Assembly: GCA_964486995.1 (NCBI GenBank)
Contig: CAZAOV010000019.1
Location: forward strand, 1 to 21,538
Length of the DNA stretch: 21,538 nucleotides
Direction of reading: 5' to 3'
Source of the DNA: an uncultured Gammaproteobacteria bacterium
GTDB lineage: Bacteria; Patescibacteriota; Patescibacteriia; SG8-24
The notes under the pieces: generated by a model
Told to the model about the DNA's origin: nothing
What the model saw: only the letters and a program-made list of their open reading frames with translations
Database searches by the model: none
Shown here: in pieces, positions 4,668 to 11,923 of the stretch
Position numbering within the stretch: position 1 is the stretch's first letter
Layout: each line of letters begins with the position of its first letter
Translations under genes and position numbers: made by a program

Positions 4668-5420
4668 ATGGAAAAAATATCTCCAATATTGAAATCACTC
4701 GGATTGCTGGACAGCGAAGTCAGCACTTATTTGGCTGCTCTCGAAAAAGGTCCGAGCACGGTGATTGATTTGACTAAGGCATCGAAGCTTTCGCGCCAAG
4801 CGACTTACACGGCGATTGAGATACTCACCGAGCGTGGGTTGATGTCTTCGGTATTGCGCGGCAAAAAGCGTTTTTATACCGCCGAGCCGCCAGAAAAGTT
4901 ATTGTCTTATGCCAAACGGAAAGACCAAGAACTGCACGAGCAAGTTAATGATTTAGAACGCGCTCTGCCCGAGCTGGAGCTGCAAATCGGCGGAGAGAAA
5001 CCGGTTGTAAAAGTTTTTGAAGGCAAAGAAGGCATCAAGACCATTATTCAGGATATTGAGACTGCAGCAGTAGATGAGTCGTTCGAGATTACAGATGTTG
5101 ATGCGATGTACCGTGTGCTTACACCAGAAGATTTAAAAGAGATGCGCGGCAAATTAAAGCGAAAGAAACGCCAGGTGTACGGTATTTACACCCCAAGTGA
5201 GGCGCCCAAGTCAGAAACCGTGACCAGCGAACAGGCGGTGCTGAGTGATGAAGAGATCGGATTTGATTCAAATATCGGAATCTACGGCAGTAAGGTAATG
5301 TTAGTTACGTTCCGCGGCAAGATGTATTCGGTGGTAATCGATTCCGAGCCTCTGGCCGAGGCGATGAAGATATTGTTTAAGCATGCCTACAATGATTTGA
5401 AGAAGCGAAAGAAAAGTTAA
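4668..5420 (+). CDS. TrmB-family transcriptional regulator (winged HTH), paralog 1
   Basis: AAGGAAT precedes the ATG. The N-terminus LGLLDSEVSTYLAALEKGPSTVIDLTKASKLSRQATYTAIEILTERGLM matches the TrmB-type HTH architecture. It is a 250-aa paralog of 10807..11559. Confidence 0.8.
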   Translation: MEKISPILKSLGLLDSEVSTYLAALEKGPSTVIDLTKASKLSRQATYTAIEILTERGLMSSVLRGKKRFYTAEPPEKLLSYAKRKDQELHEQVNDLERALPELELQIGGEKPVVKVFEGKEGIKTIIQDIETAAVDESFEITDVDAMYRVLTPEDLKEMRGKLKRKKRQVYGIYTPSEAPKSETVTSEQAVLSDEEIGFDSNIGIYGSKVMLVTFRGKMYSVVIDSEPLAEAMKILFKHAYNDLKKRKKS

Positions 5421-5443
5421 TGAGAAAATACGAGATAAAATAA

Positions 5444-5469
5444 GACACCGGTCAGCCGGTGTCTTTTGA
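5444..5469 (+). terminator. Intrinsic terminator after TrmB paralog 1
   Basis: AGACACCGGTCAGCCGGTGTCT perfect hairpin followed by TTTT. Confidence 0.7.
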
Positions 5470-6095
5470 AATAAAAAAGGGGCCTGCGCGAGAGTCGCGT
5501 GGTTCCCCTGTGGCGCTCAACCGTTACCCATGCTTCACCTCCTCTGGTCAGGTTGACTCACGAGCCGTCAGTTTTTTGTCGTTGACTGTCTATAGTCTTC
5601 GACCAAAAACGCATCGTTCTCACTCATCTCGTTCGTCATGGGCACCTCTTAATCGTTGGAGCTTGGTTGTTTCCCGTTTGTTGACGTTGACAAAATTTTG
5701 TGAGTCTGACCTGCTGGAGTGATGCTCGGGTTTTTTGAGCGGCGCTAAAAAAAAGTCATTCGATAAATATTTTACAGTCCGCCCACTAGCTGCCTCCTTT
5801 CATGGGTGATTTGTATTTGGGCATTTTCGCATTGCCCCGCCGCAGTCATCAATCATTATTGATATCTACGGCAGGGTAATGCTTTTTTGTCTCCGAGACT
5901 CCTCCATCTCATCGACTCTGTACTATAACATAGATTGGTAATTCTGTCAAGGGTTACAGGACATAGTTGTAAAACGCAGAAAAAGTTACAAATAATCTTG
6001 AAAAACGACAATCAAATACTGGACATTATCTAGTGATAATAGAGTTCATATTTGGCTAATTATAAATAATTATCTAAATTATGTCTAGGAAAGAC

Positions 6096-6124
6096 TTGAC
6101 ATATTTTAAAAACTGTGGTATAGT
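6096..6124 (+). promoter_or_regulatory. Near-consensus sigma70 promoter with an extended -10 and an upstream AT-rich UP-like tract
   Basis: -35 TTGACA (6096-6101), a 17-bp spacer, TGg, then -10 TATAGT (6119-6124). About 200 bp of very AT-rich DNA precedes it (5900-6095). The predicted TSS is near 6131. Confidence 0.65.
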
Positions 6125-6130
6125 CCAGCG

Positions 6131-6828
6131 TCGGAGGTTGAAACAAGCGAATCCGGCAAGCCTGCCAGCAGGCAGGCACAAGCGGAACATTAAAACTTAA
6201 TGTGAAAACAGGAAGGCTGATGACACAGAGTAAGTAGTAAAGATGTCGAATAGCGTTGTCAGGGTAGTAATCATTTCCCCGCACTATATAGGGAACCACA
6301 CCCGACCGCAACGTGAAAAGCATCAAACGAAAACTCGCCATGTCAGCCTGGGGAGGAGGCAGTCTTCCTTCCGCCATAGTTACGAAGAGCGATGGCTTCG
6401 TAGCTGAGGCGGGAGGAGTTGGCGCTCAACCTAGGTAGTCAGTATGCGTTCCGTAACGGTTTGACGCCGTTTCATACTCGAAACGTCGTCAGTGCGGGGT
6501 GGTCCGCGCGCAAACCCGGGAGTGATTTCCCGAAAGTCCAAGTAATTTCGCGGATTACTTGGAGGCCAAACCAGGCTCGAAAAAACCACCTTTCATTCAT
6601 GTGGTGGGTCAGGTTGCGCTTGCAACCTGACCCTCCTATCGGAGCGATCGAGCCGCAATTCGATATCTGCGACGGGAGGCTATTCATAATCGAATACAGT
6701 CATCGCACCACATTAGAGTCTTTCGGCTCGGCGCATGTATTTGCGATGGTCGATACGCATCGGAACAAAGAGAGATTTCGTAACGGCGTCAGCCAACTCA
6801 TAAACAGAAACCTGGTTCGGAGGGGTTA
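6131..6828 (+). ncRNA. Candidate highly structured non-coding RNA or long 5' leader of unknown family, transcribed from the strong promoter
   Basis: About 700 nt carry no convincing ORF but many perfect hairpins: GCCTGC/GCAGGC at 6161-6177, GACGcCGTTTC/GAAACGtCGTC at 6462-6490, CCAAGTAAT/ATTACTTGG at 6537-6561, and a 12-bp GGGTCAGGTTGC-GCTT-GCAACCTGACCC at 6608-6635. GGAGG with 5-nt spacing lies at its 3' end, before ORF 6829. Confidence 0.3.
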
Positions 6829-7095
6829 ATGAATTTGGTTAAGTTGGACGGTCTGCCCGAGAAGCATCTCGTTGAGGTGGCTCAGGCGAACTACGCGACG
6901 GTTCAGCGCTTGTATCCCGTCAGGGAAGCGCGGGAGATGTTGCGCAACGAAGGCGACTGCGGTGATTTCGGCGGCTATCGGCTCGTCGATACGCAGCCGG
7001 CGCGTCACAAGTGTTCGTGTCATGTGTGCCGTCGCTGGCGCAAGTCGCAGAAGCGCGACCGTCGTGCTGAGAGGAGATTCGATATGCCCGGTTAA
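6829..7095 (+). CDS. Small hypothetical protein (88 aa) with a Cys/His cluster and an Arg-rich tail
   Basis: GGAGGGGTTAATG gives a good SD. The protein contains HKCSCHVCRRW followed by RKSQKRDRRAERR. It lies in a GC-rich segment. Confidence 0.45.
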   Translation: MNLVKLDGLPEKHLVEVAQANYATVQRLYPVREAREMLRNEGDCGDFGGYRLVDTQPARHKCSCHVCRRWRKSQKRDRRAERRFDMPG

Positions 7096-7097
7096 CT

Positions 7098-7313
7098 ATG
7101 CAAGTAGTTACTCATCGTGTGAAGAAGTCTCGTCGCTGCCGTTGCAAGGGTGGCATGGCGCGTGAAATGCGGGCTCTTCGGAGCAGCGCGCACCGTCGTC
7201 ACCGACGTTCTGCAGCGGAAGCCTGCAAGATGATCGTTCGGGGAGCTGACCCCGACACCGCTTTCGGGCGTGTGGCCGTCGGTGGCTATGTCACCGAGCG
7301 GGACATCATCTAG
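7098..7313 (+). CDS. Small Arg-rich hypothetical protein (71 aa)
   Basis: The ATG is 2 nt after the upstream stop, which allows coupling. There is no own SD. The protein is very basic (RRCRCKGG, HRRHRR). GC-rich frames here can produce spurious ORFs. Confidence 0.3.
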   Translation: MQVVTHRVKKSRRCRCKGGMAREMRALRSSAHRRHRRSAAEACKMIVRGADPDTAFGRVAVGGYVTERDII

Positions 7314-7558
7314 TGATGAGGCCAGTTAGTTCCGGTTCGCAGGCGAATCGGTTGCGGTAAATCTCGACCGCATAAAACAACGAGTCGGCGTCACCTGCCG
7401 TGAGTGGTGCCCTGCCTCTTTATTTTTTTAAAGAAAGCGGGGTCCCGCCTTAACCGGCGGGAAGCCTTGGGGAAGCAGAGCCCCACTTGATAGCGGAATG
7501 ATTATTCCGCTCCTACCAGAGTTCCGAACTTGGTTCGGGACTGCGCTAGGAGGAATGC

Positions 7559-7954
7559 ATGAAAGCCACTTCGTTTTTCTCTCCGGTTCGTCGTGCAGAT
7601 TACTTCGATTACGTAATCGACCGCGGTATCCGTGTCCCGTTCAACCTGAGTCGGTTTCTTCCTGAGGGTCGGCGTGCGTTCGTTATGGTCATCCCGGTGA
7701 CCGGCGTTCGCTCCGAATGGATGGAAACGTCTGACAACGGTCGGTGGTGCTTCGGGCATACCTCCGGTTGGAACGGCAGCTATCACGACGCTTGGTATGA
7801 GCCTACTGTCTTCGTCTGGGCCTGCGGGTCCGGCAAGTTCAAGCGAGCTCGCAAGAAGTTACATGAGGCTGTCGCCCGCCACAGCGACGCAGAGCGGATT
7901 GATTCGAGCGTCGCTCGATACCGCGCCCGACTGCTTGTGCGTGAGGGTGACTGA
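7559..7954 (+). CDS. Hypothetical protein (131 aa)
   Basis: TAGGAGGAATGCATG gives a strong SD. A hairpin-dense leader precedes it and a terminator follows at 8071-8098. No family is recognised. Confidence 0.5.
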   Translation: MKATSFFSPVRRADYFDYVIDRGIRVPFNLSRFLPEGRRAFVMVIPVTGVRSEWMETSDNGRWCFGHTSGWNGSYHDAWYEPTVFVWACGSGKFKRARKKLHEAVARHSDAERIDSSVARYRARLLVREGD

Positions 7955-8070
7955 AGAAATGCATGCGCGATCGGGGCGGGGGAGTACCGCCTGGCATATG
8001 GACCCGTGGGATGTGCTGAGCGCGCTCCGGGATCAGGCCTGGGAGCATCGTTACATCAACTAGATTCGAA

Positions 8071-8098
8071 ACCCCTCTCTGTTCGGAGAGGGGTTTTT
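8071..8098 (+). terminator. Intrinsic terminator
   Basis: CCCCTCTC-gttcg-GAGAGGGG hairpin followed by TTTTT. Confidence 0.75.
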
Positions 8099-8182
8099 CT
8101 TATCAACAGTTGCGGGCAGACCTTCTATATATAAGTATATATGTGGGCCGTATGTGGCTCTGCTCATTAAAAGGGGTTCGAA

Positions 8183-8830
8183 ATGACCGATGTAAAGTTG
8201 CCGAATCGGCAAATGTTACATGAGATTCTAGAAGATCGCATCAACAACAATCGACGCCGAGTGAAAATTGCAAAGCTGATGGAGCCGTTTTTTGTCCGCG
8301 CCGAGACCGGCATCTATCAACTGTATCGGCGCAAACAGCTCAACAAGCGGCGCGTTGTTTCGGCGCTGAACAAATCACTGCGAGTCAATTCACGGCGGCT
8401 TGAATTCTGCTCGGTTGCGCGGCCAGTTCCGCGGCAGCCATGGATGACACACGATGCGTACATGGCGCTCCTCAACGACTACATGTTGCGCTGTATCTGG
8501 ACCAGCACCAGCGATCTCGGTATGCGTAGCGCATTGAAAGATGCCTACAGACAATACCTGAATCATAACTATCCTGACCTGCTAGCTGAGGCGGACGATA
8601 TTCTGCAAGATTTTTTCGGTAATTCACTCTGGAAGAGCTCCAACGAATCAATGTTTTCCGGCGTAGGCTATGTGCTCGAAGAGTCGTTGAAATATTTTTT
8701 CGCCTTTCAGCTCACCAACAACGCCAATATACAGCAGTGGTTGGATTCGCTTATGCGGTTGTTGCCACGGGCGATTCCGCTGGGCATACGAACCGACCGG
8801 CAAGACACTTGGGTAGTGCTGGTAGCGTGA
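8183..8830 (+). CDS. Hypothetical protein (215 aa)
   Basis: AAAGGGG SD before the ATG. Its stop overlaps the next gene's start region. No recognisable motif; no P-loop. Confidence 0.55.
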   Translation: MTDVKLPNRQMLHEILEDRINNNRRRVKIAKLMEPFFVRAETGIYQLYRRKQLNKRRVVSALNKSLRVNSRRLEFCSVARPVPRQPWMTHDAYMALLNDYMLRCIWTSTSDLGMRSALKDAYRQYLNHNYPDLLAEADDILQDFFGNSLWKSSNESMFSGVGYVLEESLKYFFAFQLTNNANIQQWLDSLMRLLPRAIPLGIRTDRQDTWVVLVA

Positions 8831-8834
8831 AGTG

Positions 8835-9317
8835 ATGAAGATAAGGAAAGTGTTGCTGACTGGCGTTTGTGCCGTGATGGTTGTTGCGGCCTGGTCCTGG
8901 GACGCTCAAGCGCAGGGTGGGGAATACGATTTAATTCGTGACAATCCACATGCTGAGGACATGTACTTTGGTTGGATGGAGGCGGCTATCACGCCGCCGC
9001 ACACCGCTGTTGGTTTGAGCCTAGGCGATAATCAGCTGTCTGTTCGCTGTGTATCGCTTGGACGCATGGTGCAGCATGAGCCGGGACATGGCTATTGCGG
9101 TTTGCATGTTGGGCGGCCGGGTTATCCTTCAGTTGGGATTGGCTTGTCCATGTCTCGCGACATTCGCCCGTTTCCGGATTCGGCTATGGCGATTGATTTG
9201 ACGTTCGGTTGCGCTGGCGTGGTGGCGCTGTTCGAATACGGCGACTATCGGCGCGAGTATCATGTGTTTTTTATGCTTCGCTTAGATCGGATATGGAACC
9301 CGATAAACCGAAGATGA
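8835..9317 (+). CDS. Secreted hypothetical protein (signal peptide)
   Basis: Begins MKIRKVLLTGVCAVMVVAAWSWDAQAQG, a typical signal peptide ending AQA-QG. It is coupled to the upstream gene, whose TGA lies 4 nt before. A terminator follows. Confidence 0.5.
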   Translation: MKIRKVLLTGVCAVMVVAAWSWDAQAQGGEYDLIRDNPHAEDMYFGWMEAAITPPHTAVGLSLGDNQLSVRCVSLGRMVQHEPGHGYCGLHVGRPGYPSVGIGLSMSRDIRPFPDSAMAIDLTFGCAGVVALFEYGDYRREYHVFFMLRLDRIWNPINRR

Positions 9318-9322
9318 GCTTG

Positions 9323-9350
9323 CCGCCTTCTTAATGAGGGCGGTTTTGTT
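9323..9350 (+). terminator. Intrinsic terminator
   Basis: CCGCC-ttcttaatgag-GGCGG followed by TTTTGTT. Confidence 0.5.
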
Positions 9351-9381
9351 ATCCTATAAACCCCCGGCGCAGCCGAAGCAT

Positions 9382-9459
9382 GCCCGTAGCGGCAGAGCTC
9401 GCCACTGCCCGGTTTGGCGAGCGCACGCTTCTACGGGCAGAGACGAGCTCTGCCGCTAA
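9382..9459. promoter_or_regulatory. Long imperfect palindrome / putative operator upstream of the ligase gene. Its right arm recurs at 4622-4648.
   Basis: The left arm GCCCGTAGCGGCAGAGCTCG (9382-9401) is the reverse complement (18/19) of the right arm CGAGCTCTGCCGCTAAGGG (9444-9462). There is a nested CTGCCCG/CGGGCAG pair. The right arm ACGGGCAGAGACGAGCTCTGCCGCTAA matches GCGGGCAGAAGCGAGCTCAGCCGCTAC upstream of TrmB paralog 1 at 22/27. Confidence 0.4.
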
Positions 9460-9560
9460 GGGTCGGCGGCGGTCGCTTACATTGACAAAATGGCCCACTT
9501 GAGATAAAAAATATTATTCGCAATAGTGCGAATTTTTTGTCGCCAGCCTAGGAGATTAAA

Positions 9561-10706
9561 TTGACACCACGTGAGATTATCGGACGACTAAGGGCGCTGG
9601 TAAAGGGTATGGTTTCGGCTCGCGTCAACAATAAGGTAAGACTGCGCGCTTGGCTCAAGGAGAATGAAGCGTATGTGGCCGAATGCCTGGCGTATGAGCG
9701 CAAAGAGGGGATGCCACCCACCACCTCGTTGGTATCGGCGCATTTTCATCCGGATCTGCCGCTAGTCGGGCTCAATTACACCGGTGTGGCGCATAATACG
9801 CTGTATGCCTTCCCCGAAGGTTGGACGCTGCCGCTCAGGTATTGCCGTGGTATCGTGTTTGACCGACGCGGTACACTCGTGGCGTGGCCGTTCGAGAAAT
9901 TCTTCAACTACGGCGAGCATCCCGACTCAATGAATATTCCGGAAGGTCCAATCACCGCCACCGAAAAGCATGACGGCCATTTGGGCATAATTTTCCGGTA
10001 TCGCGAACGGTTCATCATCACCACACGCGGCACGTTCACGCATCAGTCGGCCGCTGTCGGCCAGAAGATGCTGGATGAATTGGCGCGCCAGTATAATTGG
10101 TTCAAGATGTATCCGGAACAGATGACGTTGCTGGTTGAAATCATTCATCCGGAAACTAAAGTGCATCTGGATTACGGCGACGTCGAGCAGCTCATGCTGA
10201 TTGGTGCGCGCCATCATCGGGGGGATTTCTATGATTGCGAACACCGTGCATTGGAGCTCTTGTCCGACATCTTGGGAATGCCCTGTGCCAGTCAGATGCA
10301 GTTCCCGTCGCTAGGAGCTCTGGCCAACTACGTTGCCGACAACTCCGTGGTCACCCGCGAAGGTCTAGTCGCTGCTTACCGCGACGGACCGTTCCTGCGC
10401 CGCGTGAAGTTCAAGTTCCACGGCTACCTCGGCCTAATGTTCAACGCCAAGATGTCGTTCAAGTACGTTCTGCAGCGCATCATGAACGATGACCTAGACG
10501 ATCGCCTCAGCATGATGTCCGAAGAAAATCGGATTAAGGCTCAGAAGTGGGTCGCGCAGGCCATGGACGTGTGCAACTGGCCCGGCGCGCAAAAGGAGCG
10601 CTGGACGCGACTCTACAAGTTACTGCCCGAAGATCAAGACACTCCGTATGCCCGGCAGATTTGCCGTAGCTACGTGAAGTGGCTCGATGAACAAAAAAAC
10701 AATTAG
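9561..10706 (+). CDS. ATP-dependent RNA ligase-like covalent nucleotidyltransferase (Rnl-type). The family assignment is tentative.
   Basis: TTG start after GGAG. Motif I-like ITATEKHDGHLGIIF follows the KxDG pattern of ligases and capping enzymes. LLVEIIHPE and LRRVKFKFHGY resemble motifs III and V (KxK). No DNA-ligase OB or BRCT signatures are evident. Confidence 0.55.
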   Translation: MTPREIIGRLRALVKGMVSARVNNKVRLRAWLKENEAYVAECLAYERKEGMPPTTSLVSAHFHPDLPLVGLNYTGVAHNTLYAFPEGWTLPLRYCRGIVFDRRGTLVAWPFEKFFNYGEHPDSMNIPEGPITATEKHDGHLGIIFRYRERFIITTRGTFTHQSAAVGQKMLDELARQYNWFKMYPEQMTLLVEIIHPETKVHLDYGDVEQLMLIGARHHRGDFYDCEHRALELLSDILGMPCASQMQFPSLGALANYVADNSVVTREGLVAAYRDGPFLRRVKFKFHGYLGLMFNAKMSFKYVLQRIMNDDLDDRLSMMSEENRIKAQKWVAQAMDVCNWPGAQKERWTRLYKLLPEDQDTPYARQICRSYVKWLDEQKNN

Positions 10707-10712
10707 CGTATG

Positions 10713-10737
10713 GCCGCCTAAATAATGGCGGCTTTTT
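10713..10737 (+). terminator. Intrinsic terminator after the ligase-like gene
   Basis: GCCGCC-taaataat-GGCGGC followed by TTTTT. Confidence 0.75.
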
Positions 10738-10806
10738 GTTGCGTGTATTGACTTACAAAAAAAGTGTGTTAGGCTTTATACGAATTTTTAGCTCGAGAAA
10801 AAGCCT

Positions 10807-11559
10807 ATGCAAAGCAAAATAAGCAAGATGCTCAAAGAGTTGGGTCTAACCGACGGAGAAATCAAGACGTATCTTGCGGTCCTGAATTTAGGGCCAAGTA
10901 GCGCGTTAGACCTGTCCATTGCCACTGGCCTGACGCGTCAATCAACCTACAATGCCACCCAGCGTTTAAGCGACCTGTCATTGTTGGATTTTTCGGTGCG
11001 CGGAAATATTAGTGTCTTTTCCGCAAAAGATCCTTCATGCCTGATTAATTTTGCGCAAAGCCGCCAGCGAAATATGGATACGTTGGTTAAGGAACTTTCT
11101 GAACTTGTTCCAGAATTGAAGATGCAATCCGGCGGCGAGAAGCCTTCCGTAAGCATTCCTGAGGGCAAGGAAGGATTGCTAGAAGCCATGACGGTTATTC
11201 TGCAGTCCGGACCAGGCGGTGGGTATGAGCTAGTCGATTTCGAGGCGGTTAGAGAAAAACTGGCCGACCATGCCTATGAAGAGATGGAACAAATGGTAGC
11301 AAAACAGGGCGTGCGTGACGTTACCGCTTTTTTTACTGATTCCGCACCCGACAACATGTTGGAGGCAGTACAGAAAGCTTATATAATTCCAGGCGAGGAC
11401 GGAGGTTTTAAGTCCGTAGTCTGTGCGTTCGAAAAAAAGATTGTATTGGTTTCTTTGCGTGATAAGGTTCATACAATAGTCATTGAGGATGAGCTTTTAG
11501 CCGGGGCTCTGCGTCTGTTGTTCAAATACGCCGCAATCGGCCTGGAACAGCAGAAGTAA
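10807..11559 (+). CDS. TrmB-family transcriptional regulator, paralog 2
   Basis: Same 250-aa length and architecture as 4668..5420. The HTH reads LGLTDGEIKTYLAVLNLGPSSALDLSIATGLTRQSTYNATQRL, and GGEKP..EGKEG is shared with paralog 1. Confidence 0.8.
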   Translation: MQSKISKMLKELGLTDGEIKTYLAVLNLGPSSALDLSIATGLTRQSTYNATQRLSDLSLLDFSVRGNISVFSAKDPSCLINFAQSRQRNMDTLVKELSELVPELKMQSGGEKPSVSIPEGKEGLLEAMTVILQSGPGGGYELVDFEAVREKLADHAYEEMEQMVAKQGVRDVTAFFTDSAPDNMLEAVQKAYIIPGEDGGFKSVVCAFEKKIVLVSLRDKVHTIVIEDELLAGALRLLFKYAAIGLEQQK

Positions 11560-11580: not shown

Positions 11581-11608
11581 CGAATCTCGCAGGGAGATTC
11601 GTTTTTTT
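11581..11608 (+). terminator. Intrinsic terminator after TrmB paralog 2
   Basis: CGAATCTC-gcaggg-GAGATTCG followed by TTTTTTT. Confidence 0.8.
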
Positions 11609-11679
11609 GATTTAAACTTGTGGAAAAAACGTTAAAATTTGTACTTGACAGTCTTCAAAAAAATGATATTTTTATGAAT

Positions 11680-11797
11680 GAATTGGATCATAGGCTCCAG
11701 TTCGCGGAGGCGGATACGGCTATGCAATCTCGAGCTTGGTCGTAGGGCAGTCCGCCTCCAACCCAAAAGGACGACCAAATGGTCGTCCTTTTGGTTT
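11680..11797 (+). ncRNA. Candidate small RNA (about 115 nt) between two terminators
   Basis: -35 TTGACA at 11645-11650 with a weak -10 TATTTT 16 nt downstream. A 9-bp 5' stem GGAGGCGGA/TCCGCCTCC lies at 11707-11759. The 3' end is a perfect terminator, AAAAGGACGACC-aaat-GGTCGTCCTTTT at 11765-11792, followed by GGTTT. No ORF is present. Confidence 0.35.
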
Positions 11798-11894
11798 AGG
11801 GGTTTGAACGTCGGAAATTATGAAGGGTTTGGCTAGAAATCGGCTTCAATATTAGACGTTTCGTTATGCTCCCAAAAAGCGAAATCACAAGCTG

Positions 11895-11923
11895 TCGCGC
11901 ATGTGGCGGCTTTTTGCTATAAT
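11895..11923 (+). promoter_or_regulatory. Extended -10 promoter upstream of the repeat-protein gene
   Basis: TGcTATAAT at 11915-11923. The -35 is poor. Confidence 0.35.

Follow-up and report, generated by a model that had tools for sequence, protein, structure and literature searches.

The sequence analysed here, referred to throughout as the window, is a contig of 21,538 nucleotides (nt; CAZAOV010000019.1, assembly GCA_964486995.1) from an uncultured bacterium that GTDB places in the Patescibacteriota (Patescibacteriia; SG8-24). Between a gene for a TrmB-like regulator (TrmB1, 4668-5420) and a series of small open reading frames (ORFs) that begins at position 6829, the window holds about 700 nt of hairpin-dense DNA behind a near-consensus promoter. 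A first-pass annotation, made from the sequence without database searches, had suggested that this region encodes either a structured RNA of a new class or an elaborate leader for the small ORFs. In keeping with that suggestion, we found that the promoter, the 5' domain of the RNA and a repeated 67-nt stem-loop, which we call the M element, are shared by syntenic Patescibacteria and carry compensatory changes. Because M sequesters the Shine-Dalgarno sequence (SD) of downstream small ORFs in orthologous loci, the leader alternative is favoured. On balance, and with only slightly better than even confidence, we interpret 6131-6828 as a structured leader at the 5' end of an mRNA that starts from the promoter at 6096-6124, and as a member of a rare family of modular cis-regulatory or processing leaders for genes of small basic zinc-ribbon-like proteins. 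The modular RNA family itself is rare, previously uncatalogued and a possession of one clade of Patescibacteria.

Related loci that we fetched for comparison are designated by L-numbers; L003 is truncated at its 5' end. The features of the region, with protein lengths in amino acids (aa), are the following.

5922-5950, minus strand: divergent near-consensus promoter (TTGACA, 17 nt, TATAGT, with TG), read toward a terminator hairpin at 5442-5465 and also present in L002 and L004.
6000-6095, plus strand: AT-rich, UP-like tract between the divergent promoter and the promoter at 6096-6124.
6096-6124, plus strand: sigma-70 promoter, with a -35 element TTGACA (6096-6101), a 17-nt spacer and an extended -10 element TGgTATAGT (6116-6124).
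6128-6428, plus strand: conserved 5' domain of about 300 nt, aligned over its full length to L002, L011/L012 and L014.
6254-6313, plus strand: nearly invariant core, (U)GGGUAG.AAU.AUUUCCCCG(N7-9)AGGG..C.CACCCG, enclosed by a covarying helix.
6349-6358, plus strand: purine tract GGGGAGGAGG, complementary to the CUUCCUUCC that follows it, a possible rival of the M1 helix and a candidate anti-anti-SD.
6358-6428, plus strand: M element 1 (M1), with anti-SD strand CUUCCUUCCGCC, variable apical hairpin and SD-like GGCGGGAGGAG; it ends the 5' domain.
6419-6829, plus strand: open frame of 136 codons, with a TTG start 2 nt past an SD-like GGAGG and a TAA that overlaps the ATG at 6829 (TAATG).
6429-6602, plus strand: lineage-specific hairpin block, including a perfect 10-bp hairpin at 6537-6563.
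6603-6636, plus strand: hairpin H1, GGUGGGUCAGGUUGC/GCAACCUGACCCUCC, with 15-nt arms, the 3' arm continuing into the anti-SD strand of M2.
6623-6691, plus strand: M element 2 (M2; CCCUCC ... GGGAGG), an orphan with no start codon at SD distance.
6692-6828, plus strand: lineage-specific 3' tail of the putative leader, ending in the SD GGAGGGG (6818-6824) of the 88-aa ORF.
6829-7095, plus strand: 88-aa ORF for a small basic protein with FGGY...CxCxxCRRxRK, the gene that the leader would serve.
7098-7313, plus strand: very basic 71-aa ORF, starting 3 nt past the 88-aa stop and 65% identical to a 72-aa ORF of L002.
7500-7565, plus strand: M element 3 (M3), the ribosome-binding site (RBS) of a 131-aa ORF (ATG at 7559), with its SD AGGAGG paired to CUCCUA.

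The promoter lies where it had been placed before and is nearly perfect, agreeing with the sigma-70 consensus at 11 of 12 positions, with a 17-nt spacer and a TG ahead of TATAGT. The AT-rich DNA reported upstream is likewise present, the GC content being 0.31-0.36 across 5900-6200 and about 0.5 elsewhere. Positions 5919-6132 of the window are 71% identical to L002 5895-6105 and, where the region is available, a promoter of the form ACTTGACA-N17-TA(T/A)(A/G)GTC stands at the homologous site in L002, L011-L013 and L014-L017. From these sequences we infer that the region is transcribed, with a start near 6131. No intrinsic terminator was predicted inside 6128-6828, ahead of the ORF at 6829.

The RNA that would be made from this promoter folds unusually well. 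On the plus strand, the 701 nt of 6128-6828 have a minimum free energy (MFE) of -273.9 kcal/mol, as compared with -217 +/- 6.6 for dinucleotide shuffles (z = -8.6); the minus strand reaches -246.5 kcal/mol (z = -5.6), which is 27 kcal/mol worse. Because the plus strand folds better than the minus strand, the promoter strand is favoured by G-U pairs. When the whole window was scanned by folding successive 200-nt segments, the longest run with z below -3 was 5700-6800, and the other peaks were short terminator-like intergenic hairpins. Plus-strand segments that cover 6401-6800 gave z = -2.6, -4.3 and -3.9, despite including parts that are not conserved. The density of hairpins described in the first-pass annotation is real, and perfect hairpins were found again, such as 6537-6546/6554-6563 (10 bp) and the one with 15-nt arms at 6603-6617/6622-6636.

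The 5' domain supplies the first line of comparative support for a conserved RNA. Its RNAalifold consensus has 70 pairs, with 90.2% of cells paired as compared with 80.4% in shuffles and 41-49% when the partners are slid, and both sides have changed in 28 of the 70 pairs (11.9 +/- 2.5 in shuffles); these figures come from four independent lineages only and from a structure derived from the same alignment on which it was scored. The best-conserved segment is the core (94% between L002 and L012, 85% between L002 and L014), whose helices join 6254-6259 with 6308-6313 (three covarying pairs), 6261-6268 with 6298-6304, and 6276-6280 with 6291-6295. The core is almost invariant even at unpaired positions, and it is a candidate sensor or binding site. 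A conserved, covarying structured domain upstream, which a translational leader would be expected to have, is thus present in the form of the 5' domain.

The second line of support is the M element, in which GGCGGGAGG is the pairing partner of a CCUCC-type strand, the two being separated by a variable apical hairpin. The helix is up to 25 bp long, and the element is worth about -40 kcal/mol, with computed M folds from -30 to -47 kcal/mol. Thirteen M elements, from the window, L002, L003, L012 and L014, fit a single architecture of 17 consensus pairs, 12 of which have changed on both sides. Paired cells in this alignment amount to 94.0%, as compared with 77.8% in shuffles and 37-51% when slid, and the covariation score of 0.624 (0.300 in shuffles) was equalled by none of 500 shuffles.

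A covariance model built from M elements (CM R1) finds three copies on the plus strand of the 21.5-kb window, all of them inside the island that holds the RNA. M1 scores 45.4 bits (E = 4e-11) on the plus strand and 24.6 bits on the minus strand, with an MFE of -44.4 kcal/mol; M2 scores 51.2 bits (E = 7e-13) and 19.0 bits on the respective strands; and M3 scores 54.6 bits (E = 7e-14). For every window and seed copy, the plus-strand score exceeds that of the minus strand at the same site by 19-36 bits. Matches that had not been used as seeds were obtained in L002 (7119-7184, running into the start of a 110-aa ORF at 7180), L012 (6325-6386) and L014 (10731-10793), and none in the control loci L005, L018, L021 and L024. 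Scanning metagenome_contigs with a pattern for the 3' half of M gave two chance-like matches, one of them inside a 471-aa ORF.

In six cases M is the RBS of an ORF: the 83-aa and 110-aa ORFs of L002, the 99-aa ORF of L012, the 95-aa ORF of L014, the 79-aa ORF of L003, and the 131-aa ORF of the window. The remaining copies have no start codon at a workable distance. The clearest case is the M1 ortholog of L002, where the ATG of the 83-aa ORF lies 5 nt further on, so that the GGGAGG there is a genuine SD buried in a stem. A leader of the M3 type also precedes the 79-aa ORF of L003 (1713-1778). An SD within a conserved helix is thus found in L002, L012, L014 and L003 and for the 131-aa ORF of the window, and is absent for the 88-aa ORF of the window. 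The presence of M copies, including those without an ORF, accounts for a ten-fold excess of GGAGG, which occurs seven times in 6128-6828 against an expectation of 0.74.

Beyond the 5' domain, the second half of the RNA combines conserved modules with sequence particular to this lineage. M2 and the hairpin preceding it (window 6578-6678) match L003 910-997 with a score of 75, the null maximum being 32, and the L003 copy of this module has stops in all three frames. H1 has its homolog at L003 928-953, where three pairs of the GGGUCAGG hairpin have changed in a fully compensatory way (by eye), and a GGGUCAG...CUGACCC hairpin also stands ahead of M-type RBSs in L012 and L014. The block at 6429-6602 showed no similarity to the RNAs of L012, L014, L003 and L002 (Smith-Waterman z no higher than 1.1), and the tail at 6692-6828 showed none to the relatives.

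The relatives carry one further module, R, of about 180 nt (L003 745-925; L012 4739-4924 and 5610-5767; L014 10010-10193), laid out as AAAAAAAU.AGGCGGG ... CGUAAUGG ... GGUGAAAUUCC hairpin ... CCCAGAAAAAA, with hairpins that covary. In L012 and L014 it falls within a larger unit (about 390 nt), which has a long-range helix of 13 bp and may also form GGGG/CCCC loop-loop contacts (by eye). We considered whether 6495-6590 of the window might be a degenerate version of the R module with its GGUGAAAUUCC hairpin, and rejected this: the corresponding model (CM R2) finds four true copies at 61-86 bits and none in the window RNA. Scans of viral contigs returned one chance match in a coding region for the core and nothing for the R module.

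The region had been described as lacking a credible ORF. This overlooked the long open frame of 136 codons at 6419-6829, but we judge that frame to be non-coding and fortuitous, while allowing a slight chance that it is genuine. Its length was reached by 128 of 5000 dinucleotide shuffles (2.6%) and is mildly unusual, and its GC content by codon position (0.51/0.45/0.59) is atypical. Translated searches of genome_contigs and metagenome_contigs with back-translated patterns (tblastn-type) found no relatives, there was no Pfam match, and the exact product is not in the protein collection, where the 88-, 71-, 131-, 215- and 381-aa products of the window are all present. At the orthologous place L012 has a frame of only 36 codons and L014 has no start codon.

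The 88-aa ORF, in contrast, is real. An SD precedes its ATG at 6829, as the first-pass annotation had noted; this SD (GGAGGGG, then 5 nt) is a good one, and the third-position GC content of the ORF is 0.71. Its homologs follow the RNA in L002 (83 aa) and L003 (79 aa), and also, as read from the sequence, in L012 (99 aa) and L014 (95 aa). The family is lineage-restricted and always adjoins the RNA; 1.84 billion representative proteins contain only five credible relatives, and the 88-aa ORF retrieved nothing but itself in a word-based homolog search. The 71-aa ORF is probably translationally coupled to it, to judge from their spacing. Exact-protein look-ups gave no match for the 88-aa and TrmB products, and for the 131-aa product only one on a 1.5-kb duplicate contig; the 131-aa gene is also present in run SRR7048221. 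None of the small ORFs belongs to a family in Pfam, NCBIfam, PHROGs or PADLOC. Following the 71-aa ORF, positions 7373-7486 contain a hairpin, a T-run (7421-7431) and then AAAGAAAGCGGGG..., an element kept in L003 628-723 at 80-87% identity; within it, 22 nt of L003 (700-721) are identical to L002 6973-6994. This element may contain the terminator of the leader mRNA or else mark where the next unit begins.

The RNA matches no catalogued Rfam family, as had been proposed. At the gathering threshold, Rfam 15 identifies only the tRNA at 16327-16400 in the whole window, and when the search of 5700-7600 was relaxed to E <= 10 the only rows were miRNA families, matched by chance through hairpins; no family was matched in L002, L003, L012 or L014. 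Those rows that did appear (miRNA families, Vault, SAM_alpha and similar) lie far under their gathering scores, and we regard them as chance hairpin matches. The resemblances to RNase P RNA, tmRNA and the cobalamin riboswitch, which had been set aside as coincidental, proved to be so. For RNase P RNA the standard was the pair of models RNaseP_bact_a/b, including P4 and the conserved GGAAAGUCC/ACAGAA elements in structural context; neither matched at its gathering score, nor at E <= 10 over 5700-7600, and the RNase P-like strings GAAAGUCC and ACAGAAACCUGG fall in lineage-specific segments. For tmRNA, which is recognised by a tRNA-like domain together with a tag-peptide reading frame, ARAGORN reports only a tRNA-Val at 16324-16400 and Rfam gives no match. 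No riboswitch family, cobalamin or other, was found in the window at E <= 10, and the only riboswitch row among the relatives is SAM_alpha in L014 (16.9 bits, with a gathering score of 36). Covariance models of GOLLD, ROOL, HEARO, OLE and raiA had no match in the window, L002, L003, L012 or L014. We also rejected an RNA thermometer of the ROSE or fourU type, because M helices of up to 25 bp and -30 to -47 kcal/mol are too stable and Rfam gives no match, and a CsrB/Rsm sponge, because the enriched GGAGG sits in the 3' stem strand of M and not in loops. A full-text literature search found no description of such an RNA, and blastn of 5700-7600 against phage and plasmid records returned no match.

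The distribution of the RNA follows that of a variable block of genes. A TrmB1 profile gave 429 matches at E <= 1e-20, and among the best 120 the named organisms are nearly all Patescibacteria. The gene order YkuD, two others, TrmB1, long non-coding gap, small ORFs, 215-aa protein and Rnl1 ligase recurs in L002, L003, L011-L013 and L014-L017, and the 215-aa ORF (8183-8830) has five homologs. After TrmB1, the next called plus-strand gene or the contig end is reached within about 1.1 kb (L002), 2.6 kb (L012) or 1.3 kb (L014-L017). The RNA itself, from promoter to first credible small ORF, has approximate lengths of 0.28 kb (L002), 0.7 kb (window), 0.9 kb (L014) and 1.9 kb (L012). L004 and L018 have about 0.55-0.6 kb after TrmB1 without a plus-strand RNA, L021-L023 go directly from TrmB1 to a second TrmB-like gene (TrmB2) with the whole block absent, and in the Uhrbacteria (L024-L033) TrmB1 is followed by relA/spoT. 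Because they are missing or reduced in L004, L018, L021-L023 and the Uhrbacteria, the RNA, small ORFs, 215-aa gene and ligase constitute an accessory block. In the reduced block of L018 and L004 a gene of the 215-aa family stands directly after TrmB1, with the ligase next in L018. Scans of genome, metagenome and viral collections found no further copies of the RNA.

If the region is a leader, we would picture its action as follows. An mRNA starting near 6131 would extend across both the 88-aa and the 71-aa ORF. An M element that adjoins a start codon buries the SD, and translation of the small ORF would then need the helix to be opened or cut; it is in this sense that we infer that M gates translation. 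Opening might be achieved by the purine tract 6349-6358, pairing with the anti-SD strand in competition, or by a protein that recognises M or the core, for which the small basic proteins are the obvious candidates; alternatively, a double-strand-specific RNase might cut M. The orphan copies (6358-6428 and 6623-6691) could be additional operator or processing sites, or the products of duplication and recombination between M copies. The fusion of M1 to an ORF in L002 looks like a deletion by such recombination, which would also explain the modular shuffling seen, for example, where window 7513-7554 and L003 1726-1767 precede non-homologous ORFs.

By analogy with known systems, the RNA would work most like a translational expression platform or an autoregulatory leader, and it recalls phage-type processing hairpins in some features and the large ornate RNAs in size. 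Like translational riboswitch platforms, it has a conserved upstream domain followed by an SD:CCUCC-type helix, with a purine tract that could compete, and in L002 the helix lies directly on the start codon; unlike them, it contains no known aptamer (Rfam), its helix is longer, stabler and often repeated without an ORF, and its length is 0.28-1.9 kb. In the early region of phage T7, RNase III processing hairpins lie between genes. Long hairpins with an internal loop just upstream of small genes in one long transcript are common to both, and cleavage could here too free an RBS or separate units; however, the SD here is inside the stem, there is no sequence similarity, and the organism is a bacterium and not a phage. 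Ribosomal-protein leaders, of which the rpsF S6:S18 motif is an autoregulatory example (PMC3895269), likewise place a structured 5' untranslated region before small basic proteins of RNA-binding type that could bind their own leader. The proteins here, in contrast, are non-ribosomal and of no known family, and the RNA is ten times larger and repetitive. With OLE, GOLLD, ROOL, raiA and HEARO it shares a length of 0.7-1.9 kb, many hairpins and a restricted phylogenetic range, but it is contiguous with ORFs, modular and variable in length, and has no single conserved architecture. A short purine motif (here GGAGG) repeated over a varying number of hairpins is likewise a mark of CsrB/RsmZ sponges, but in this RNA the motif is paired in stems, and no CsrA-like gene was seen.

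Several observations weigh against the leader interpretation. A pure translational switch does not account for the orphan state of two of the window's three M copies. The 88-aa ORF has no M directly before it (137 nt separate it from the end of M2, and its own SD is only weakly paired), so that the direct gating observed for L002, L012 and L014 cannot be claimed for that gene. Conservation holds for only about 55% of the 700 nt; the remaining 310 nt or so (6429-6602 and 6692-6828) is lineage-specific and not conserved at all. The seven-fold range of leader lengths, with L002 at 280 nt, is unusual for a ligand-sensing leader, and the family is known from only four or five lineages. To the narrow base and self-derived structure of the 5' domain consensus, mentioned above, must be added that its outer helices form poorly in the window itself. 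Finally, the complementary purine tract just 5' of the anti-SD strand was recognised by eye in the window, L002, L012 and L014 (alignment A4), and its registers differ.

Because the 88-aa ORF lacks an M, orphans are common and lengths vary seven-fold, two other readings stay alive. One, which we consider unlikely yet deserving of serious attention, is a stand-alone or processed large non-coding RNA that works as a ribonucleoprotein (RNP), in which proteins, the 88-aa and 71-aa products being the most plausible ones, would bind M and the core; M at an RBS would then mean autoregulation, orphan copies would act as scaffold or sponge, and the RNA might cooperate with the Rnl1-type ligase. The predominance of orphan over RBS copies in L012 and L003 (and two of three in the window), the near invariance of the core even where unpaired, and the extra conserved R module of the relatives, with covarying hairpins and possible loop contacts (by eye), would all fit, as would a tiny, lineage-restricted 88-aa family always beside the RNA and the position of the whole block as an accessory island including an RNA ligase. 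The lineage of L012 is known for compact genomes, and an RNA of 1.9 kb there points the same way. Opposed to this are the lack of a terminator or obvious 3' end ahead of the ORF, the retention in L002 of only a 280-nt 5' domain fused straight to an ORF, the concealment of GGAGG in stems rather than its display in loops, and the absence of the R module from the window. We think it improbable that the RNA represents a new class of modular RNP-forming RNA of 0.7-1.9 kb, particular to ultra-small Patescibacteria, whose M elements and core are bound by the co-encoded zinc-ribbon-like proteins and which forms one unit with the Rnl1-type ligase and the conserved, novel-fold 215-aa protein, for instance in RNA processing or ligation or in a defence-like system borne by the accessory island between the two TrmB-like genes. 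The other, somewhat more improbable still, holds that most of the region is non-functional debris of a fast-evolving cassette, made of duplicated M hairpins, decayed ORFs and recombination, and that only the promoter and the M elements at RBSs matter. It accords with the hypervariability of the interval from TrmB1 to the 215-aa gene (0.5-2.6 kb of non-coding DNA directly after TrmB1, with differing small ORFs), with the same M-type leader before non-homologous ORFs (window 7513-7554, L003 1726-1767), with the deletion-like layout of L002, with the 310 nt that lack a homolog, and with the loss of the block in L021-L023, where TrmB1 and TrmB2 are adjacent. Yet a near-consensus promoter, a near-invariant core and compensatory changes in orphan copies would not persist in debris, and the non-conserved parts still fold unusually well (z = -2.6, -4.3, -3.9). 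Non-functional DNA is, moreover, usually purged from small genomes.

Two further explanations appear to us very unlikely. The 3' 410 nt might encode a real 136-aa protein (TTG 6419 to TAA 6829) translationally coupled to the 88-aa ORF: the frame begins at the position orthologous to the L002 83-aa start, overlaps the next start as TAATG, and has a length attained by only 2.6% of shuffles. However, its SD spacing of 2 nt is too short, it is conserved neither in L012 (36 codons) nor in L014 (no start) nor in the L003 module (stops in all frames), its product has no tblastn relatives, Pfam match or entry in the protein collection, and it is full of long perfect hairpins with compensatory changes at the RNA level. 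We give equally little credence to hairpins that act as DNA, whether as integron attC-like recombination sites, origins of replication or transfer, or repeats of the REP/MITE type. Long palindromes and the cassette-like variability of small orphan ORFs would suit such a role, but the plus strand folds 27 kcal/mol better than the minus strand, the covariance-model scores are strongly strand-specific and the SD content points to RNA. No integrase, transposase or tyrosine recombinase is found among the window ORFs (attC core sites, GTTRRRY, were not searched), M is confined to the island, with none elsewhere in the 21.5 kb or in the control loci, and no direct repeats or target duplications were seen.

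The surroundings of the putative leader hold a number of additional features. The block 5421-10806, which contains both RNAs, the small ORFs, the 215-aa and 161-aa ORFs and the ligase and whose small-ORF part is hypervariable, is bracketed by the two paralogous TrmB-like genes (4668-5420 and 10807-11559, 35% identical to each other). The second RNA is a predicted structured transcript of 477 nt on the minus strand (5440-5916, z = -5.3), downstream of the divergent promoter and directed toward the TrmB1 terminator hairpin. It contains 4-codon mini-ORFs with strong SDs that recur in relatives even without the plus-strand RNA (MGNG* in the window, L002, L014 and L021; MGGC* in L002, L012, L014 and L018), and there are weak M-like matches on that strand too (window 5835-5876, 25.5 bits). 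A pattern scan of genome_contigs with the divergent promoter gave three matches (L006-L008), with a likeness of only 31 nt at the query pattern and none to the RNA region. Downstream of TrmB1 in L002 (Patescibacteria metagenome-assembled genome GCA_043804985.1), positions 5476-5538 are a non-coding (CACT)n microsatellite of about 60 nt.

Further along, the 215-aa protein (8183-8830, plus strand) stands beside the ligase in six clusters and has no Pfam, NCBIfam, PHROG or PADLOC family; its AlphaFold model (pLDDT 71, pTM 0.72) is mostly helical and has no fold match in the PDB. An inverted repeat (9383-9462; z about -7), whose 29-nt arms are 90% complementary, separates the 161-aa ORF from the promoter of the ligase gene, which encodes a T4 Rnl1-type RNA ligase (9561-10706). 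After TrmB2, the plus strand of 11600-11900 is again strongly structured (z = -9.1 and -7.4, with a hairpin of 23-nt arms at 11755-11802), and spurious ORFs over it match L002 12909-13131 in two frames, which points to a conserved non-coding element ahead of the Big_9/cadherin gene. The interval between the DHH gene (minus strand) and a vault homolog (plus strand) holds three direct repeats in tandem, each of about 97-121 nt (17905-18213; copies 1 and 2 are 90% identical). Their minus strand folds better (z = -3.9, -2.9) than the plus strand, they have no Rfam match and resemble nothing in the fetched loci, and they could be small RNAs or a repeated leader. The vault homolog is an 877-aa ORF (18588-21221, plus strand) with Pfam MVP_shoulder and Vault_3, a major-vault-protein homolog on a Patescibacteria contig. 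The other genes of the window include YkuD/FG-GAP and Big_9/cadherin genes, a radical SAM/SPASM enzyme and DHH, and most of the window's products occur in the protein collection as singletons.

The genomes of Patescibacteria are very small and gene-dense, and RNA-based regulation in these bacteria is almost entirely uncharacterised. Although the rarity of the family leaves its general importance uncertain, one clade of these organisms spends 0.3-1.9 kb, under a near-consensus promoter, on an RNA of conserved, covarying modules that are absent from the databases. M is a compact unit in which the SD is locked in an unusually stable helix, and an active means of opening or cutting that helix should therefore exist. 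The mechanism by which M is opened would be a first handle on post-transcriptional control in this group, and would clarify how the RNA is tied to the zinc-ribbon-like proteins and to the RNA ligase.

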